Shown: piece after piece, positions 4,360-17,208 of the stretch | How positions within the stretch are numbered: position 1 is the stretch's first letter | Layout of the letters: every line of letters begins with the position of its first letter | Notes under the pieces: generated by a model | Told to the model about the DNA's origin: nothing | Databases searched by the model: none | The model's input: only the letters and a program-made list of their open reading frames with translations | NCBI RefSeq assembly: GCF_003334355.1 | Contig: NZ_QOWP01000009.1 | From: Escherichia coli | GTDB taxonomy: Bacteria > Pseudomonadota > Gammaproteobacteria > Enterobacterales > Enterobacteriaceae | DNA: 64,000 nucleotides | Direction: 5' to 3' (one strand) | Position numbers and translations under genes: made by a program

Positions 4360-4850
4360 TCACTTCACTGTGGAAAATGAGGAAATATTATTTTTTTTGC
4401 GCTTCGTAATTAATGGTTATAAGGTCGGCCAGAAACCTTTCTAATGCAAGCGATGACGTTTTTTTATGTGTCTGAATTTGCACTGTGTCACAATTCCAAA
4501 TCTTTATTAACAACTCACCTAAAACGACGCTGATCCAGCGTGAATACTGGTTTCCCTTATGTTCATCAGATTCATTTAAGCAAGGGTTTCTTCTTCATTC
4601 CTGATGAAAGTGCCATCTAAAAAGATGATCTTAATAAATCTATTAAGAATGAGATGGAGCACACTGGATATTTTACTTATGAAACTGTTTCACTCCTTTA
4701 CTTAATTTATAGAGTTACCTTTCGCTTTTTGAAAATACGCAACGGCCATTTTTTGCACTTAGATACAGATTTTCTGCGCTGTATTGCATTGATTTGCTGC
4801 TAATCCTGTGGTTTGCACTAGCTTTAAGTGGTTGAGATCACATTTCCTTG

Positions 4851-4897
4851 CTCATCCCCGCAACTCCTCCCTGCCTAATCCCCCGCAGGATGAGGAA
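4851..4897 (+). promoter_or_regulatory. malPQ promoter region with three MalT-box-like motifs
   Basis: CTCATCCCC (4851-4859, reverse of GGGGATGAG), CTCCTCCC (4865-4872), GGATGAGGA (4888-4896), about 70-110 bp upstream of the malP ATG; matches the MalT box consensus GGGGA(T/G)GAGG. Confidence 0.7.
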
Positions 4898-4940
4898 GGT
4901 CAACATCGAGCCTGGCAAACTAGCGATAACGTTGTGTTGA

Positions 4941-7358
<2,418 letters not shown>

Positions 7359-11807: not shown

Positions 11808-13299
<1,492 letters not shown>

Positions 13300-13325
13300 G
13301 CACTTTTGAATGGCGAGACAGAACT

Positions 13326-14204
13326 TTACTGACTCGCCGCAGCCAACTCTTCTTCTGACAGCCCGGTAAAGCGCATGATGTCTGCAAGAGGGACTCCGGA
13401 TTCAAGCATTATTTTGGCTATATGCAAGGCTTTGGATTGTTCCCCCTCCTGCCGCAATCTTTCCGCAATAGTCATTAAACTCTCCTTGTGTTTCGGTGAA
13501 CGTTCGGCAACGCCGTCGATAAAATCGTTAAAACGTACCGCATCGCCGGTTTGCAAGATGTAATTAAACAGCCCTTTGATTTGTCTGTCATTAGCGTATC
13601 CACTACTTAATAAGCAGGCCATTTGTTCTACCAGCCCCATCAGATCGCGTTGACGAATATGTTTTTGAATTAACTCCAGCAGCGCCATACGTCGGTGCTG
13701 CATGATTTCATCATCAGGCATGACGGTGACATCAATCAGCGGAAATGCGGAGGCATAAAGCTGCCTTGCCAGTTTGGGATCGGCGAAACAATCCAGCCAA
13801 CACAGCGAATAGGGATAGGGGCTTTCAATACCGTGGTAAAACAACAATGGCACCACCATCGGCAACGTTTTGTATCCGGCATCAAGGTGATTTTGCATTG
13901 CGGCAATAGCGTAACGCATCATGCGAAATGCGATCAGTTTGTTTGAGGTGCTTTGATGTTCAATCAGACAATAGATGTATCCTGGTCCTTGTTCTGTTTT
14001 CACCGACCACAGCACATCGGAATAGCTTTCACGCAGATCGTCATCAATAAAGCTGCTCGACTCCAGCTTGAGGGTTTTCATATCACAGAGCGCGTGAATG
14101 GGTGCCGGTAAATGAAACGCAAGAAAATCGCGTGCCGTCTCCGGTTGGCGTAAAAAGAGTTTGAACAGCGCATCGTGTGGGGTGGAACTCTGCTTTTTGC
14201 TCAT
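13326..14204 (-). CDS. rpnA: Recombination-promoting nuclease RpnA (YhgA-like, transposase-related PD-(D/E)XK family)
   Basis: 292 aa; translation matches the YhgA/Rpn family as I recall it; stands alone between bioH and feoC. Confidence 0.85.
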
Positions 14205-14349
14205 GGCGTTCCTTCACCTGTTGTTTGAATGCCGCGACTCTACGCGCCACTCCACACCTGTGCATTAGCCAGTTTTCATCCCTGCGAGACGCTTTCAGAG
14301 GAACTTACGTCGCGCTGCAAGAATTGCATTTTTATGGAAAGCCGCACGC

Positions 14350-14380
14350 AAAAAAGCCCGGATGCAGACGCATACCGGGC
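14350..14380 (-). terminator. Intrinsic terminator downstream of feoC
   Basis: Hairpin AGCCCGG-(13 nt loop)-CCGGGCT followed on the minus strand by TTTTTT. Confidence 0.7.
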
Positions 14381-14406
14381 TTTTCAAAACAGGCGATGGA
14401 GTATGG

Positions 14407-14643
14407 TTAACGCAGCGCCCACCACTCGCGCAGACAGGCTTTTCCTTCCGGGCAGCTTTTACAACTGCCGGAGAGGCAGCCGTCAGGTTCTTCCTGAATC
14501 CGCACGGCTTTGCCCATACTTTCCAGTTGTTGCAGCATGGCGTTAATCATTGGCTGCGGAGTGTGCAATGTCTGGCTTATCTGGGCCGCTTCCATACGGC
14601 CCCGTAACGCCAGCAAATCACGCACCTGAATAAGTGAAGCCAT
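14407..14643 (-). CDS. feoC: Ferrous iron transport protein C
   Basis: 78 aa from the ATG at 14641-14643 (ORF track starts 3 codons earlier); Cys cluster '[15 protein letters not shown]'; start overlaps the feoB stop (TAATG). Confidence 0.9.
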
Positions 14644-16964
14644 TAATGGCAATCACCGGTGGTGCTGGCTGCGCAGCAACTACTTACCGACTTGCGGGTT
14701 GCCAGCAGTTCGATATCCACCCGGCTACGCGCGCGGCGCAGCAGACCGATAACCACGATGTTAAACAGGATAACCGCCAGAATGCACACCAGGCTGTAAG
14801 TTGGGTGCTGACTGTAGCTGGCGACCTGATAGAACAATGTTGCCAGCGAGTAAGCGATATTCAGCCCCCACAGGATGGAGAAGCCCATCCAGCCACGGCT
14901 TGATTCACGGGCGATGGCTCCCATCACCGAGATACATGGTACATACAGCAGGACGAAAATCAGGTAGCTGTAAGCTGCTGCTGCGCTACCGAATTTCTGA
15001 TCCATCACGCCCATCGCCCCGGTACCCATTTCGCCGTCGCCTTTGCTGGCTTCAATGGGGTTCATCAGTACGCTAAGGCTGAAGGTGTCTTTCAGGCTCT
15101 GCCAGGTTTCATCTATCGCACTGAACAGCTCTTCACCGAGGTTAAACTCTGCCGGATTGAACTCTTCGTCCTGAATATTTTCTGCGGTGTAGAGGGTGTT
15201 GAGCGTACCCACTACCACTTCTTTCGCCATGGCACCTGTAAACAGGCCAACCGTTGCCTGCCAGTTATCTTCATGCACGCCAATTGGCTTGAAGACCGGG
15301 GTGATCACCCGGCTGACGGACGCCAGCGCCGAGTCGTTGATGTTATCGACGATTTTCCCGCTCAGCGAGAAGCTGTTGAAAGCGCTCAGGAAAATGCTGA
15401 CGATGATGATCACTTTACCAGCACGCAGAACGAAGCCTTTCAGACGCTGCCAGGTCTGGATAATCAGGCTTTTAACGTGTGGTACATGATAGACCGGCAA
15501 CTCCATGACAAACGGCGTCGCTTCACCGCGCATGATGGTGTACTTGAGCATCAGGCCAGTCAGCACCGCCATCACAATACCCAGCATATACAGCGAGAAG
15601 ACCGCCAGCGCACCGTTCTGCCCGAAGAAGGCAGCCGCGAATACTGCGAAGATAGCCAGACGCGCGCCGCAGGACATAAACGGTGCCATCATGATGGTCA
15701 TCAGACGTTCACGCGGTGCATCAAGCGTACGTGCACCCATTACCGACGGTACGTTACAACCGAAACCGACGATCAGCGGCACAAAGGATTTCCCCGGCAA
15801 GCCCAGCGCCTGCATCAGACGGTCCATCACAAACGCCGCACGCGCCATATACCCGGAGTCCTCAAGGAAGGAGAGGAACAGGTACATCATGCCAATCTGC
15901 GGCACCAGTGGCAGCACGGTGTTAATGCCGCCACCCAGGCCCTGGGCGAGGAAGATAGTCAGCCAGTCCGGGAAGTGGAGCGTGTAGCCAATCCATTGAA
16001 TACCATGCACAAATAGCGCCACGGAGCCGACGTCAAACAGCGGCTGTAACGCCCCGCCGATGTTGATAGCCAGCAGGAACATCAGGTACATCACAAAGAG
16101 GAAAATCGGCAGACCGAGGAAACGGTTGAGCACGATTTTATCTACCGCAGTGGTGAAACGGCTGGGTTCTGCCGTCAGGGTGTTGCTTACCACATCACAG
16201 ATGGCAGCAATGCACTGGTAACGCGCATCGGCAATGTGCAGCGCCGGATCGTCCATCTCATTACGCAGACGGGCGAGGGCGGCATCCAGATGCTGCGACG
16301 CTTCACCGGCGTAGGCGCGGCTGTAGATATCGCCTTCCAGCATTTGCAGGCCCAGCCAGCGACGTTGTTTCAGCGGGATGTCGGAAGGCATCACTTTTGC
16401 CAGTGAATCTGCTTCGTTGAGCAGCGGCTGTGCGTAATGCACCAGTTCCACATTCTCGTTAGCTTTATAGCGATCAATCGCCAGCTTGAGCGCTTCAATA
16501 CCGCGACCACGGGTTGAAACCAGCGGGATCACCGGACAGCCCAGACGCGCCGACAGAGCATCAATTTCAATACGAATATTTTGCTTCTCGGCAATGTCGA
16601 GCATGTTCAGTGCCACAATGCAGGGAATGCCGAGTTCCAGCAGTTGTAGCGTCAGGTACAGGTTACGCTCAAGGTTAGACGCATCCACCACGTTAATCAG
16701 CAGGTCGGCGTCGCCACTCAAAATGTAGTGACAGGCGATTTGCTCATCGAGCGAGGTCTGCGATGAGATGGTGGTCAGAGAATAGGTGCCGGGCAGGTCC
16801 ACCAGCGTGACCTGATGATCGGTGGTGGAGAATTGCCCTTCTTTACGTTCGACGGTAACGCCAGCCCAGTTACCTACACGCTGACGTGCGCCAGTGAGCT
16901 GGTTAAATAAGGTTGTCTTGCCAGAATTTGGATTACCAATTAAGCCTATGGTTAATTTTTTCAT
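14643..16964 (-). CDS. feoB: Ferrous iron transporter FeoB (GTPase plus permease)
   Basis: 773 aa from [18 protein letters not shown] (G1 motif); ATG confirmed at 16962-16964; long hydrophobic C-terminal domain. Confidence 0.97.
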
Positions 16965-16980
16965 TGTTGTTATCACCGTA

Positions 16981-17208
16981 TTAACAGGAAACCGCTTCCA
17001 CTTCTAATAAGGCCAGATCTTTTTTGCGTAATACCAGGCTCACACGACGGGTTTCGATATGAATGGGGTCGCCGAGTGGAGCGACGCGCACCACATTAAA
17101 AGAGGAGCCAGGTAACATGCCAAGAGAAAGCAGTTTTTGGCGATATGCCGGGCTGATTTCACGGGAAAAGCCAGTGATTTTCCACGCAGTATCTGGAGTG
17201 TATTGCAT
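16981..17208 (-). CDS. feoA: Ferrous iron transport protein A
   Basis: 75 aa small ORF immediately upstream of feoB. Confidence 0.93.

Follow-up and report, generated by a model that had tools for sequence, protein, structure and literature searches.

The gene at positions 13326 to 14204 of the window, by which we mean the whole 64,000-nucleotide stretch of Escherichia coli DNA analyzed here, carries a transposase name in Pfam and raises the question of whether it is a mobile element or a resident nuclease, and what such a nuclease would do for its host. We conclude that the locus is very probably chromosomal rpnA, a two-in-one toxin-antitoxin module and not an autonomous mobile element. This reading of rpnA is already in the literature (Kingston 2017, Zhong 2023). 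The features of the gene are as follows.

13326-14204, minus strand: full-length rpnA open reading frame (RpnA_L), ATG start, 292 amino acids; toxic Mg2+-dependent DNA endonuclease, an activity published for the K-12 protein.
13578-14183, minus strand: Transposase_31 / YhgA-like domain including the PD-(D/E)XK core (Pfam PF04754, residues 8-209, E = 1.8e-91).
13953-14018, minus strand: core catalytic codons, D63 at 14018-14016, E82 at 13961-13959 and Q84 at 13955-13953, read in the translation.
13326-13475, minus strand: rpnA_S antitoxin open reading frame, M244 to Q292, 49 amino acids, in frame with rpnA_L; 100% identical to PDB 7TH0 chain A.
13482-13487, minus strand: Shine-Dalgarno sequence AAGGAG for the internal start, separated by 6 nt from the M244 ATG (13475-13473), read from the sequence.

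A sequence-only reading of this DNA had described the product as a YhgA-type PD-(D/E)XK protein, and the profile searches agree with that description. In addition to the PF04754 match, the open reading frame scored 694.8 bits against the NCBIfam equivalog NF007361 (cutoff 583) over residues 1-292 of 292, and 161.6 against 52.1 for the TIGR01784 subfamily. The experimentally defined residues D11, D63, E82, Q84, R94 and D165 (PMC5350276) are all present in the translation, and in K-12 RpnA the substitutions D63A, E82A and Q84K abolish all phenotypes (PMC5350276). K-12 MG1655 RpnA (YhgA, b3411) is the same gene at the same locus, feoC-rpnA-bioH: the two proteins are identical at 291/292 amino acids, the sole difference being E22D, and the genes at 864/879 nucleotides. 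The catalytic residues, the internal start and the 49-amino-acid RpnA_S are all identical, and apart from E22D and a bioH-rpnA spacer that is 2 nt shorter in the window, we found nothing functionally notable to separate them. With this protein identity, Mg2+-dependent endonuclease activity, toxicity and SOS induction would be expected to carry over from K-12 RpnA.

The sequence-only reading overlooked what defines rpnA, namely the intragenic antitoxin RpnA_S, a gene within a gene. Since 2023, rpnA has served as the type case of antitoxins that lie within their toxin genes. The rpnA of the window contains an internal start, in frame and preceded by a ribosome-binding site of its own, and translation from it is predicted. 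The AAGGAG motif spans codons K240 and E241, and mutation of these codons along with M244L was found to abolish RpnA_S (PMC10400941). In K-12, RpnA_S is the cognate antitoxin of RpnA_L, and the two form a 2:2 complex in which cleavage is blocked (PMC10400941). The RpnS sequence being identical, RpnA_S from the window is predicted to inhibit its RpnA_L in the same way. The variable C-terminal helical tail (HTH_Rpn_C, the RpnS region) is present, with residues 244-292 matching 7TH0_A. The tail family PF27070 was not among the matches reported by a Pfam search of the RpnA protein; it is precomputed on close homologs of RpnA.

From the K-12 work, a scheme for the module can be proposed, and its first part was demonstrated for the K-12 protein. 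RpnA_L (14204-13326) is a PD-(D/E)XK DNA endonuclease that depends on Mg2+, responds to Ca2+ with stimulation and cuts with little sequence specificity, and its excess damages the cell's own DNA, induces the SOS response and promotes RecA-independent recombination. An internal promoter and the internal start (AAGGAG, ATG 13475-13473, M244) yield the 49-amino-acid RpnA_S, which dimerises and binds RpnA_L 2:2 so that cleavage is blocked. A phage factor, alkaline conditions or a similar trigger might then free RpnA_L from RpnA_S, and the module would serve as phage defence of the abortive-infection type. Transcription of rpnA_L may come from a weak conserved promoter with the -10 element TAGAGT at 14242-14237, within a leader of ~190 nt, and the hairpin at the 5' end of this leader may end feoABC transcription and so insulate the toxin gene. 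Chromosomal RpnA_L was below detection under the conditions tested (PMC10400941). The features that bound the unit are as follows.

14205-14392, minus strand: rpn leader, ~190 nt, homologous among rpn paralogs at different loci.
14237-14265, minus strand: putative promoter, -35 ATGCAC at 14265-14260 and -10 TAGAGT at 14242-14237, proposed from conservation only.
14350-14385, minus strand: hairpin with a U-run after it, at the leader's 5' boundary; folding energy -29.3 kcal/mol, z = -4.8, not equalled by any shuffle.
13300-13325, no strand: bioH/rpnA spacer, 26 nt, the 3' edge of the rpn unit, between convergent stop codons and with no terminator hairpin.

The gene had been credited with an upstream region of its own at 14205-14345. 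Such a region exists, but it reaches to about 14392 and includes the strong hairpin. The hairpin is also a terminator-like match in a terminator scan, and we conclude that it probably serves to terminate feoABC and to insulate rpnA. Together with its loop start, GCCCGGTAnGC, the hairpin recurs upstream of rpnE, of the Salmonella rpn gene that lies between bioH and feoC, and of a Citrobacter copy at another locus. A consensus promoter scan found no site upstream of rpnA_L or of the internal start. At the other edge, the terminator scan of the 26-nt bioH-rpnA spacer found no terminator-like site, and among rpn paralogs we observed no sequence conservation 3' of the stop codon. The rpnA-bioH pair of MG1655 is listed as a convergent excludon (PMC12288877).

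That a leader of ~190 nt is common to all enterobacterial rpn paralogs compared is new here. An alignment of 10 rpn copies from seven loci had 20 invariant columns and a mean column identity of 62%, and identity to the rpnA leader was 64-72%, as against 58 +/- 2% for shuffled sequence. The conserved blocks are the hairpin, TTTTGCGT, AAATGCAATTCTTGCA and TTCCTCTGAAAGCGTCTCGCA. All five rpn genes of K-12 have the leader upstream, and blastn with a leader consensus gave hits at 3 places in the median E. coli genome. In the more distant Erwinia and Photorhabdus rpn groups the leaders differ.

Three candidates within the leader were set aside. For a conserved RNA structure, RNAalifold predicted no more than 10 weak pairs, at -2 kcal/mol and with a single compensatory change, and a stem that would sequester the ribosome-binding site (CGUCAUC...GGUGACG) is disrupted in rpnA itself; we keep such a structure as an idea and make no claim of it. 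A match to Rfam RF02424, a Burkholderia sRNA candidate, at 14276-14385 scored 25 bits against a gathering score of 70 in what is essentially a hairpin-only alignment. The RF02424 match does not recur in the other paralog leaders, and we treated it as noise. Dispersed repeats offer a further comparison. RSA elements are intergenic, about 150 bp long and present in a handful of copies in K-12. The rpn leader (about 165-190 nt) may possibly be the same as the RSA / BEE95 dispersed enterobacterial repeats, a comparison made by description only. These repeats are named in the title of reference B6 in PMC3751351.

We then considered the locus across E. coli. In the annotation of a 100% identical genome, rpnA lies between bioH (12529-13299, plus strand) and feoC/feoB/feoA (14407-17208, minus strand), within the wider order gntT, nfuA, gntX, bioH, feoABC, yhgF, greB, and the housekeeping flanks bioH and feoABC that had been noted before are thus as described. 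The same annotation has no mobile-element gene from the window start to ~28.6 kb and none within about 12 kb of rpnA, in keeping with the earlier statement that no second such gene is close by; the nearest mobile element, an IS1, lies over 14 kb to the left and so beyond the window. The sequence-only reading had proposed comparing the presence and flanks of the gene across E. coli genomes, and this comparison gave a fixed locus: the 3' third of rpnA was found in 5425/5426 complete genomes, between bioH and feoC. The nuclease segment occurs in 4858 genomes, each of which has it at a single chromosomal place (minimum, median and maximum of 1), and the whole bioH-rpnA-feoC span was matched in the same number of genomes. 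True plasmids carry rpnA homologs at 66% identity or less only.

The locus is fixed, and the toxin within it has been lost repeatedly. The nuclease core is missing and the antitoxin open reading frame is kept in 762/5426 genomes (14%), through at least two independent frameshifting core deletions, one of 437 nt in 568 genomes and one of 254 nt in about 194. Another 16.5% of E. coli genomes have an alternative tail. Both observations are new here. ST131, as sampled, is among the lineages without the nuclease core, and AAN82626.1, which we take to be from CFT073, represents a second. Because the core is lost in so many genomes, we conclude that the RpnA toxin is dispensable in large lineages. 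Synonymous and non-synonymous counts in the deletion alleles comprise too few differences to read selection from; the RpnS codons, for instance, have 3 against 1. These natural toxin-dead, antitoxin-retaining alleles are ready material for asking what RpnA_S does alone.

We tentatively put forward, as a single proposal that may well be wrong, that the leader, made up of a 5' hairpin, conserved blocks ahead of the promoter and the weak conserved promoter itself, is a common cis-regulatory module through which one factor controls the expression of all RpnL toxins, that the unit copied from locus to locus truly begins with it, and that the antitoxin-only alleles are selected. If this is true, such alleles would be kept by selection, for example as protection against incoming rpnA_L, and would not be debris. 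The shared leader would also be a concrete place to seek the signal that releases or induces the toxin. The toxin-releasing signal was named as the key open question for the Rpn family by Zhong et al. (PMC10400941) and Koonin.

The same alleles could also be explained if rpnA were a selfish, addiction-type module that brings the host no benefit, decays slowly and is tolerated because the antitoxin is co-encoded. The 437-nt and 254-nt core deletions fit such decay, as do an IS element inserted in rpnA of E. whittamii, the truncation to 218 amino acids of one Citrobacter copy at the same locus, and the undetectable RpnA_L in laboratory conditions (PMC10400941). However, 86% of E. coli genomes retain the nuclease core, and where it is intact the change is mostly synonymous: between the window and one other E. 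coli allele, a single pair, the nuclease domain differs by 20 synonymous and 2 non-synonymous changes (dN/dS 0.025), and bioH has a dN/dS of 0.088 in the same comparison. In addition, the relative RpnP2 gives measurable phage protection, and post-segregational killing brings no gain to a chromosomal single-copy gene. On this evidence we regard a purely selfish module as unlikely, and we retain the reading of rpnA as a toxin-antitoxin module of the chromosome.

The history of the locus can be followed in other genera, where synteny was located via BioH orthologs. The bioH/feoC slot holds an Rpn gene in the same orientation in Salmonella, C. amalonaticus, C. rodentium and one further Citrobacter, which was assigned to C. 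freundii/farmeri by its BioH. The presence of Rpn genes in this slot across Escherichia, Salmonella and several Citrobacter is new here. In C. koseri the slot is empty, and in Enterobacter soli it contains an unrelated gene. A scan of genome contigs found mostly ~50% identical paralogs (in Photorhabdus and others) and one syntenic locus only, that of E. whittamii. Compared with RpnA, the slot copies of other genera are 64-67% identical over the full protein and 67-71% over the N domain, while the proteins flanking the slot are 79-99% identical across genera; the Rpn genes of the slot thus diverge unusually fast.

The paralogs provide a scale for this divergence. RpnB, RpnC, RpnD and RpnE have the same domain architecture as RpnA and lie at different loci, and RpnA, RpnB and RpnC each converge with a housekeeping gene. 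Over the N domain, RpnB is 70%, RpnE 63% and RpnC 53% identical to RpnA, with RpnD left out as a pseudogene in K-12; K-12 RpnE is annotated as inactive. The paralog tails differ from that of RpnA, at 24-49% identity, and antitoxin action in the family is cognate-specific (PMC10400941). By N domain, the slot copies are no closer to RpnA than is its paralog RpnB, and in the Rpn gene tree the nodes relevant to slot-copy orthology have 41-66% bootstrap. From these comparisons the slot appears to hold an old Rpn residency, and a single ancient insertion or repeated replacement would both fit.

Taken further, repeated replacement would mean that Escherichia, Salmonella and Citrobacter each acquired the rpn unit of the slot, leader hairpin through stop codon, in separate events of nuclease-assisted insertion or replacement with a preference for the site. 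A homing-like insertion was proposed for rpnC by Kingston et al., who inferred two independent rpnC insertions at one site. The low identity of the slot copies beside well-conserved flanks, the equal nearness of RpnB, the low bootstrap of the tree, and the empty or otherwise occupied slots of C. koseri and Enterobacter soli would all be expected under this history. So would the arrangement of the paralogs, which share the same 5' edge at seven loci, with the hairpin 150-165 nt upstream of the ATG, and often directly follow a gene of the same orientation and converge with the next one. Yet one ancient insertion, followed by losses and by the fast divergence typical of defence and toxin genes, fits equally, and bootstrap is too low to favour either history. 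We saw neither insertion scars nor target duplications, the 3' ends are not conserved, and there is no sign of turnover within E. coli. Independent entry in the three genera is in our view quite unlikely.

We next weighed what RpnA does. Phage protection in the Rpn family has been demonstrated only for plasmid-borne RpnP2 (PMC10400941), and RpnP2_LS from a plasmid of E. coli ECOR13 protects against T2, T4 and T-even phages of the BASEL collection (PMC10400941). RpnP2_LS and RpnA belong to the same family and, by published description, have the same gene-within-gene toxin/antitoxin layout. They differ in setting: RpnP2 is plasmid-borne, with a native promoter and higher RpnL levels, whereas RpnA is chromosomal and sits among housekeeping genes, not in a defence island. 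A literature search found no report of phage protection by RpnA itself, and the PADLOC v2.0 models gave no match to RpnA, in a database that may predate the Rpn report. By analogy with RpnP2, RpnA possibly has a role in phage defence.

The original proposal of a recombination-promoting nuclease leads to a different function, in which RpnA would be a housekeeping recombination or DNA-processing enzyme for RecA-independent DNA acquisition. The sequence-only reading had called the protein recombination-promoting, which is supported by the finding that over-expression raises RecA-independent recombination in conjugal crosses (PMC5350276). Cleavage also leaves 3'-OH ends able to prime synthesis (PMC5350276), and the locus is fixed and conserved in E. 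coli. However, the phenotype requires over-expression, RpnA_S was unknowingly co-expressed in those experiments and native RpnA_L levels are undetectable (PMC10400941), and the nuclease has been lost in 14% of genomes. A housekeeping role of this kind is very unlikely, and we continue with the toxin-antitoxin reading.

The last question is that of mobility. Inverted repeats between two flank regions of 350 nt reached 9 nt at best, a length matched by 59% of dinucleotide shuffles (p = 0.59), and within the intergenic parts only the best was 7 nt (p = 0.23). The claim that rpnA is without terminal inverted repeats therefore holds. The 9-nt pair, AGCCCGGTA (13360-13368) and TACCGGGCT (14373-14381), was rejected as the ends of the unit (p = 0.59 in the wide search, p = 0.09 head to tail); it has no counterpart in nine other rpn units, and head-to-tail repeats in 10 rpn units gave none that was consistent (p = 0.09-0.71).

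An imperfect direct repeat, TTTGAATGGCGAGAC at 13305-13319 and TTTGAATGCCGCGAC at 14224-14238, with 13/15 matches, brackets rpnA. How significant it is varies with the sequence searched: p = 0.20 when the search is wide and p = 0.01 when it is confined to intergenic DNA. The left copy has 2 extra bases, which spoil the repeat, in K-12 and in the four further E. coli alleles that we examined. It is absent in Salmonella and Citrobacter, where the bioH-rpn spacer is unrelated, and the empty C. koseri site has no single copy of it. Because the repeat is spoiled in other E. coli alleles and the spacer is unrelated in the other genera, we read it as chance and rejected it as a target-site duplication. 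Thus, the earlier statement that there is no target-site duplication stands insofar as the sole candidate is read as chance, although that candidate had been overlooked.

Published analyses likewise describe Rpn genes as lacking inverted repeats and target duplications and as not being transposases (Kingston 2017, Zhong 2023; PMC5350276, PMC10400941). That rpnA is a present or recent autonomous insertion sequence with a transposase as its product, as might be argued from the Pfam name Transposase_31, a second-best NCBIfam match named 'ISNCY family transposase', a GC dip to about 47% against about 55% in the flanks that suggests foreign origin, the 13/15 direct repeat, and a patchily distributed family found on 4812 plasmids, is scarcely credible given inverted repeats not beyond chance, a direct repeat that is degraded in further E. 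coli alleles and that other genera lack, a gene that occupies one fixed site, once per genome, no known autonomous transposase with a PD-(D/E)XK fold, as Zhong et al. argued, and no observed transposition of an rpn gene (PMC10400941).

With no inverted repeats, a single copy, a fixed locus and no mobile-element gene nearby, the view of rpnA as a fixed nuclease holds. The term 'domesticated' that had been applied to it is apt for a fixed nuclease that is not an active mobile element, but the transposase ancestry that it implies is without evidence. The main value of confirming rpnA is to guard against the misleading 'transposase' annotation. With insertion sequences ('ISNCY'/Transposase_31), rpnA has an annotation name in common; unlike these and Tn7, it lacks inverted repeats, a target-site duplication and a partner transposase gene, and is present as a single fixed copy. 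TnsA of Tn7 acts solely with TnsB, as a heteromeric transposase. The PD-(D/E)XK fold is common to TnsA and Rpn (PMC10400941).

The rpnA gene occupies exactly the interval that the sequence-only reading had assigned to it, 13326-14204, as an ORF of 292 aa with an ATG start on the minus strand. Pfam PF04754 (Transposase_31, YhgA-like) covers residues 8-209 of the product (E=1.8e-91), the NCBIfam RpnA equivalog matches over the full length with 694.8 bits (cutoff 583), and all six residues defined by mutagenesis as needed for activity (D11, D63, E82, Q84, R94 and D165) are present, which bears out the earlier assignment to the YhgA-related, PD-(D/E)XK-type proteins. Every sequence-level feature that defines the Rpn family and its RpnL/RpnS module was found in the gene and, judged by its sequence, the gene is RpnA itself. 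Because the protein differs from E. coli K-12 RpnA (b3411) by a single residue, E22D, and the gene by 15 of 879 nt, experiments on K-12 RpnA apply directly to it; the biochemical features that we predict for it rest on this near-identity.

RpnA is a Mg2+-dependent, Ca2+-stimulated DNA endonuclease with little sequence specificity, and its over-production lowers viability, induces the SOS response and increases RecA-independent recombination, effects that are each time abolished by D63A, E82A or Q84K (Kingston et al. 2017, PMC5350276). Each E. coli rpn gene also has a promoter and a translation start within its coding sequence, from which the C-terminal tail is made as a small protein of its own, RpnS (Zhong et al. 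2023, PMC10400941). The full-length product, RpnA_L, is toxic alone and cleaves DNA strongly; with the C-terminal antitoxin, RpnA_S, it forms a 2:2 complex in which cleavage is blocked and which dissociates at high pH, and RpnA_S is lost in the triple mutant K240R/E241D/M244L (PMC10400941). The corresponding elements in the window are:

13475-13473, minus strand: ATG of the internal start at M244, located in the sequence
13487-13482, minus strand: Shine-Dalgarno AAGGAG of the internal start, overlapping codons 240-241
13475-13326, minus strand: rpnA_S, 49 aa, identical to the crystallised RpnA_S (PDB 7TH0)

We conclude that rpnA encodes a toxin and, in frame within the same gene, the antitoxin that counters it. 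The sequence-only reading, which described a nuclease standing alone, therefore lacked the key feature of the locus.

The 3' end of the gene, where the antitoxin lies, faces bioH, and the immediate neighbours are arranged as follows:

12529-13299, plus strand: bioH, convergent with rpnA
13300-13325: spacer of 26 nt between the convergent stop codons
upstream of rpnA, minus strand (as rpnA): feoC-feoB-feoA

We found no terminator in the 26-nt spacer, and rpnA-bioH is listed, together with rpnB-yfcH and rpnC-panC, among the convergent transcriptional overlaps (excludons) of MG1655 (PMC12288877). Read-through from bioH would, from this arrangement, be antisense to the message of the antitoxin. 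In a genome 100% identical over the region, annotation of the first 28.6 kb or so of the window lists housekeeping genes only (rtcBA, malT, malPQ, gntT, nfuA, gntX, bioH, feoABC, yhgF, greB, ompR-envZ and pckA), and the closest mobile-element gene, an IS1, lies more than 14 kb off, beyond the window. This agrees with the housekeeping flanks (bioH, feoABC) and the lack of a nearby mobile-element gene that had been noted by eye.

The gene had been called a domesticated transposase-like nuclease, with neither inverted repeats nor target-site duplications around it. We carried out the proposed repeat search on two flank regions, each with 300 nt outside and 50 nt inside rpnA, using dinucleotide-preserving shuffles. 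Inverted repeats were no better than in shuffled sequence: the best in these flanks was 9 nt and was equalled in 59% of shuffles, and the best in the intergenic parts alone was 7 nt (p=0.23). One direct repeat with 13/15 matches brackets the gene (13305-13319, TTTGAATGGCGAGAC, and 14224-14238, TTTGAATGCCGCGAC), with p=0.20 in a wide search and p=0.01 when the two intergenic pieces alone were searched. Comparison argues against this lone candidate as a target duplication, in keeping with the earlier remark that none was seen by eye. In K-12, and likewise in four further E. coli alleles that we examined, two extra bases in the left copy break the match. Salmonella and Citrobacter have a bioH-rpn spacer of unrelated sequence, and a single copy of the motif is absent from the empty C. 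koseri site; because of these differences the repeat is probably due to chance.

Comparison of presence and flanks across complete E. coli genomes placed rpnA at a fixed, single chromosomal position. The 2.1-kb bioH-rpnA-feoC span was found in 5425 of 5426 genomes, and 5425 also carry the 3' third of rpnA. The nuclease-coding segment is present in 4858 genomes, in exactly one copy per genome and on the chromosome in every case; a match to 80% or more of the complete span was likewise found in 4858 genomes. Rpn homologs occur in 4812 plasmid records, where the matches of at least 90% identity are only records of 4.8-4.9 Mb, clearly chromosomes, and true plasmid Rpn copies are at most 66% identical to RpnA. 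Since there are no repeats beyond chance, the locus is fixed and single, and plasmid copies do not exceed 66% identity, we conclude that rpnA shows no sign of recent mobility, which agrees with Zhong et al. 2023 (PMC10400941). None of the defining features of an insertion sequence that we tested was found. The repeat and population tests uphold a non-mobile nuclease, and the transposase ancestry in the same label had been presumed. With a GC content of about 46-49%, rpnA lies below bioH and feoB, which have 54-57% (window 13200-14200), and this low value despite the fixed position is consistent with a gene of foreign origin.

A defence role of RpnA would be by analogy within its family, as plasmid-borne RpnP2 is the only member shown to protect against T-even phages (PMC10400941). 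We found no report of phage defence by RpnA in the literature that was searched, no PADLOC v2 model matches the protein, and the housekeeping neighbours are not a defence-island setting. Taken together, the earlier observation is confirmed and its interpretation supported, with reservations about ancestry, the anti-phage role and the overlooked antitoxin. The finding as it was stated was already known; our small additions, an allele census, the cross-genus occupancy of the slot and a shared leader, could aid the question of how RpnL toxins are controlled.

The slot, the interval between bioH and feoC, is occupied differently among related bacteria:

Salmonella enterica: Rpn gene of 308 aa, oriented as rpnA
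Citrobacter amalonaticus: Rpn gene of 320 aa
C. rodentium: Rpn gene of 313 aa
Citrobacter sp. (BioH assigned to C. freundii/farmeri): Rpn gene truncated to 218 aa
C. koseri (L089 4272-4354): empty, 83 nt with a REP-like palindrome
Enterobacter soli (L091 4381-4656): unrelated YdgH/BhsA-like gene
Escherichia whittamii (L005, about 4480-5760): rpnA split by an IS after about residue 215

By eye, the E. whittamii insertion carries a 376-aa ORF that is TnpB-like, of the IS200/IS605 type. The simplest reading of this occupancy is one ancient insertion followed by fast divergence and losses. Identity of the slot copies to RpnA is only 64-67% for the whole protein and 67-71% in the N-terminal domain, against 79-99% for the proteins flanking the slot. 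Rpn genes may instead have replaced one another repeatedly at the slot, as Kingston et al. proposed for rpnC (PMC5350276). The E. coli paralog RpnB has 70% N-domain identity to RpnA and the slot copies are no closer, and a neighbour-joining tree gave low support (41-66% bootstrap) to the nodes that bear on the slot copies.

The sequence-only reading had given rpnA its own upstream region, 14205-14345. Such a region exists and reaches farther, to about 14392: over some 190 nt before the ATG, homologous sequence is shared by the rpn copies of seven loci, namely rpnA after feoC, rpnE after glpC, rpnB after hisP, rpnC, rpnD, a Citrobacter copy after a KDGP-aldolase gene, and the slot copies. In the window the leader comprises:

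14205-14392, minus strand: rpnA leader, homologous to paralogs at six other loci
14385-14350, minus strand: hairpin (-29.3 kcal/mol, z=-4.8) that opens the conserved blocks, then TTTTTGCGT
14265-14260, minus strand: promoter-like -35, ATGCAC, with a 17-nt spacer to the -10
14242-14237, minus strand: promoter-like -10, TAGAGT, 17 nt after the -35

The alignment has 20 invariant columns, and the leaders are 64-72% identical to that of rpnA, where shuffled sequence gives 58 +/- 2%. The best-conserved letters of the promoter-like pair fall at canonical positions, and the conserved blocks close with GGTGA(C/A)GGAACGCC-ATG. Conservation was absent 3' of the rpn stop codons, and heads and tails of the units showed no consistent inverted repeats. 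Because the leader is homologous and the sequence past the stop is not conserved, the copied unit runs from hairpin to stop codon, 13326 to about 14392, and the hairpin that resembles a feoABC terminator belongs to it. A consensus leader search of all 5426 E. coli genomes gave a median of three places per genome. The unit is possibly the long-known 'RSA/BEE95' family of repeats. A search for RNA structure in the rpn leader found none convincing. Rfam RF02424 (Burkholderia sRNA candidate Bp2_287) matched 14276-14385 on the minus strand below threshold (25 bits, gathering score 70), mainly at the hairpin and with a strikingly similar loop, and the match did not recur in other paralog leaders. 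The main texts of Kingston et al. 2017 and Zhong et al. 2023 do not mention an upstream rpn element.

Within E. coli, two segments of rpnA vary in presence:

13691-13912: present in 4858 of 5426 genomes, missing from 568
13913-14127 (codons of D63, E82 and Q84): present in 4664 of 5426, missing from 762 (14%)

Sampled alleles showed two independent internal deletions, one of 437 nt (13691-14127) carried by ST131 and others and one of 254 nt (13913-14166) carried by strain M-17, which remove or frameshift the nuclease core in the 762 genomes. RpnA_L is frameshifted after residue 25 or 13. Leader and start codon are retained in both alleles, and so is all of the RpnA_S ORF, along with its Shine-Dalgarno, which reads AAGGAG except in M-17 (AAGGTG). 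Substitutions counted in the deletion alleles to gauge selection on the orphan antitoxin were few (3 against 1 in the RpnS codons, for example). The 254-nt deletion leaves a 197-aa ORF, AAN82626.1, which we take to be from E. coli CFT073, and each shortened ORF occurs without a single difference on at least 1000 contigs. The tail varies as well. An extra 206-nt segment between 13441 and 13442 (L003 2300-2600), in 896 genomes (16.5%), gives a 297-aa rpnA with a different tail, ...EGFQKGIRTNALNIAKTMLDAGVSLEDVLRFTSLTVEDLAEINHQ, five residues longer, and an RpnS of 54 aa; 3' of this gene follows a copy of the K-12-type tail that is degenerate and interrupted by a stop codon, and mosaic tails between the two types occur. 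This fits the published four-residue repeat variation, downstream RpnS copies and fusions (PMC10400941). For the nuclease domain a single pair of E. coli alleles was compared, and most differences were synonymous (20 synonymous versus 2 non-synonymous, dN/dS 0.025; bioH 0.088). In the ST131 allele (L001, one sampled genome), an extra 14-nt deletion removes a conserved near-palindromic leader block, AAATGCAATTCTT, at 14319-14332.
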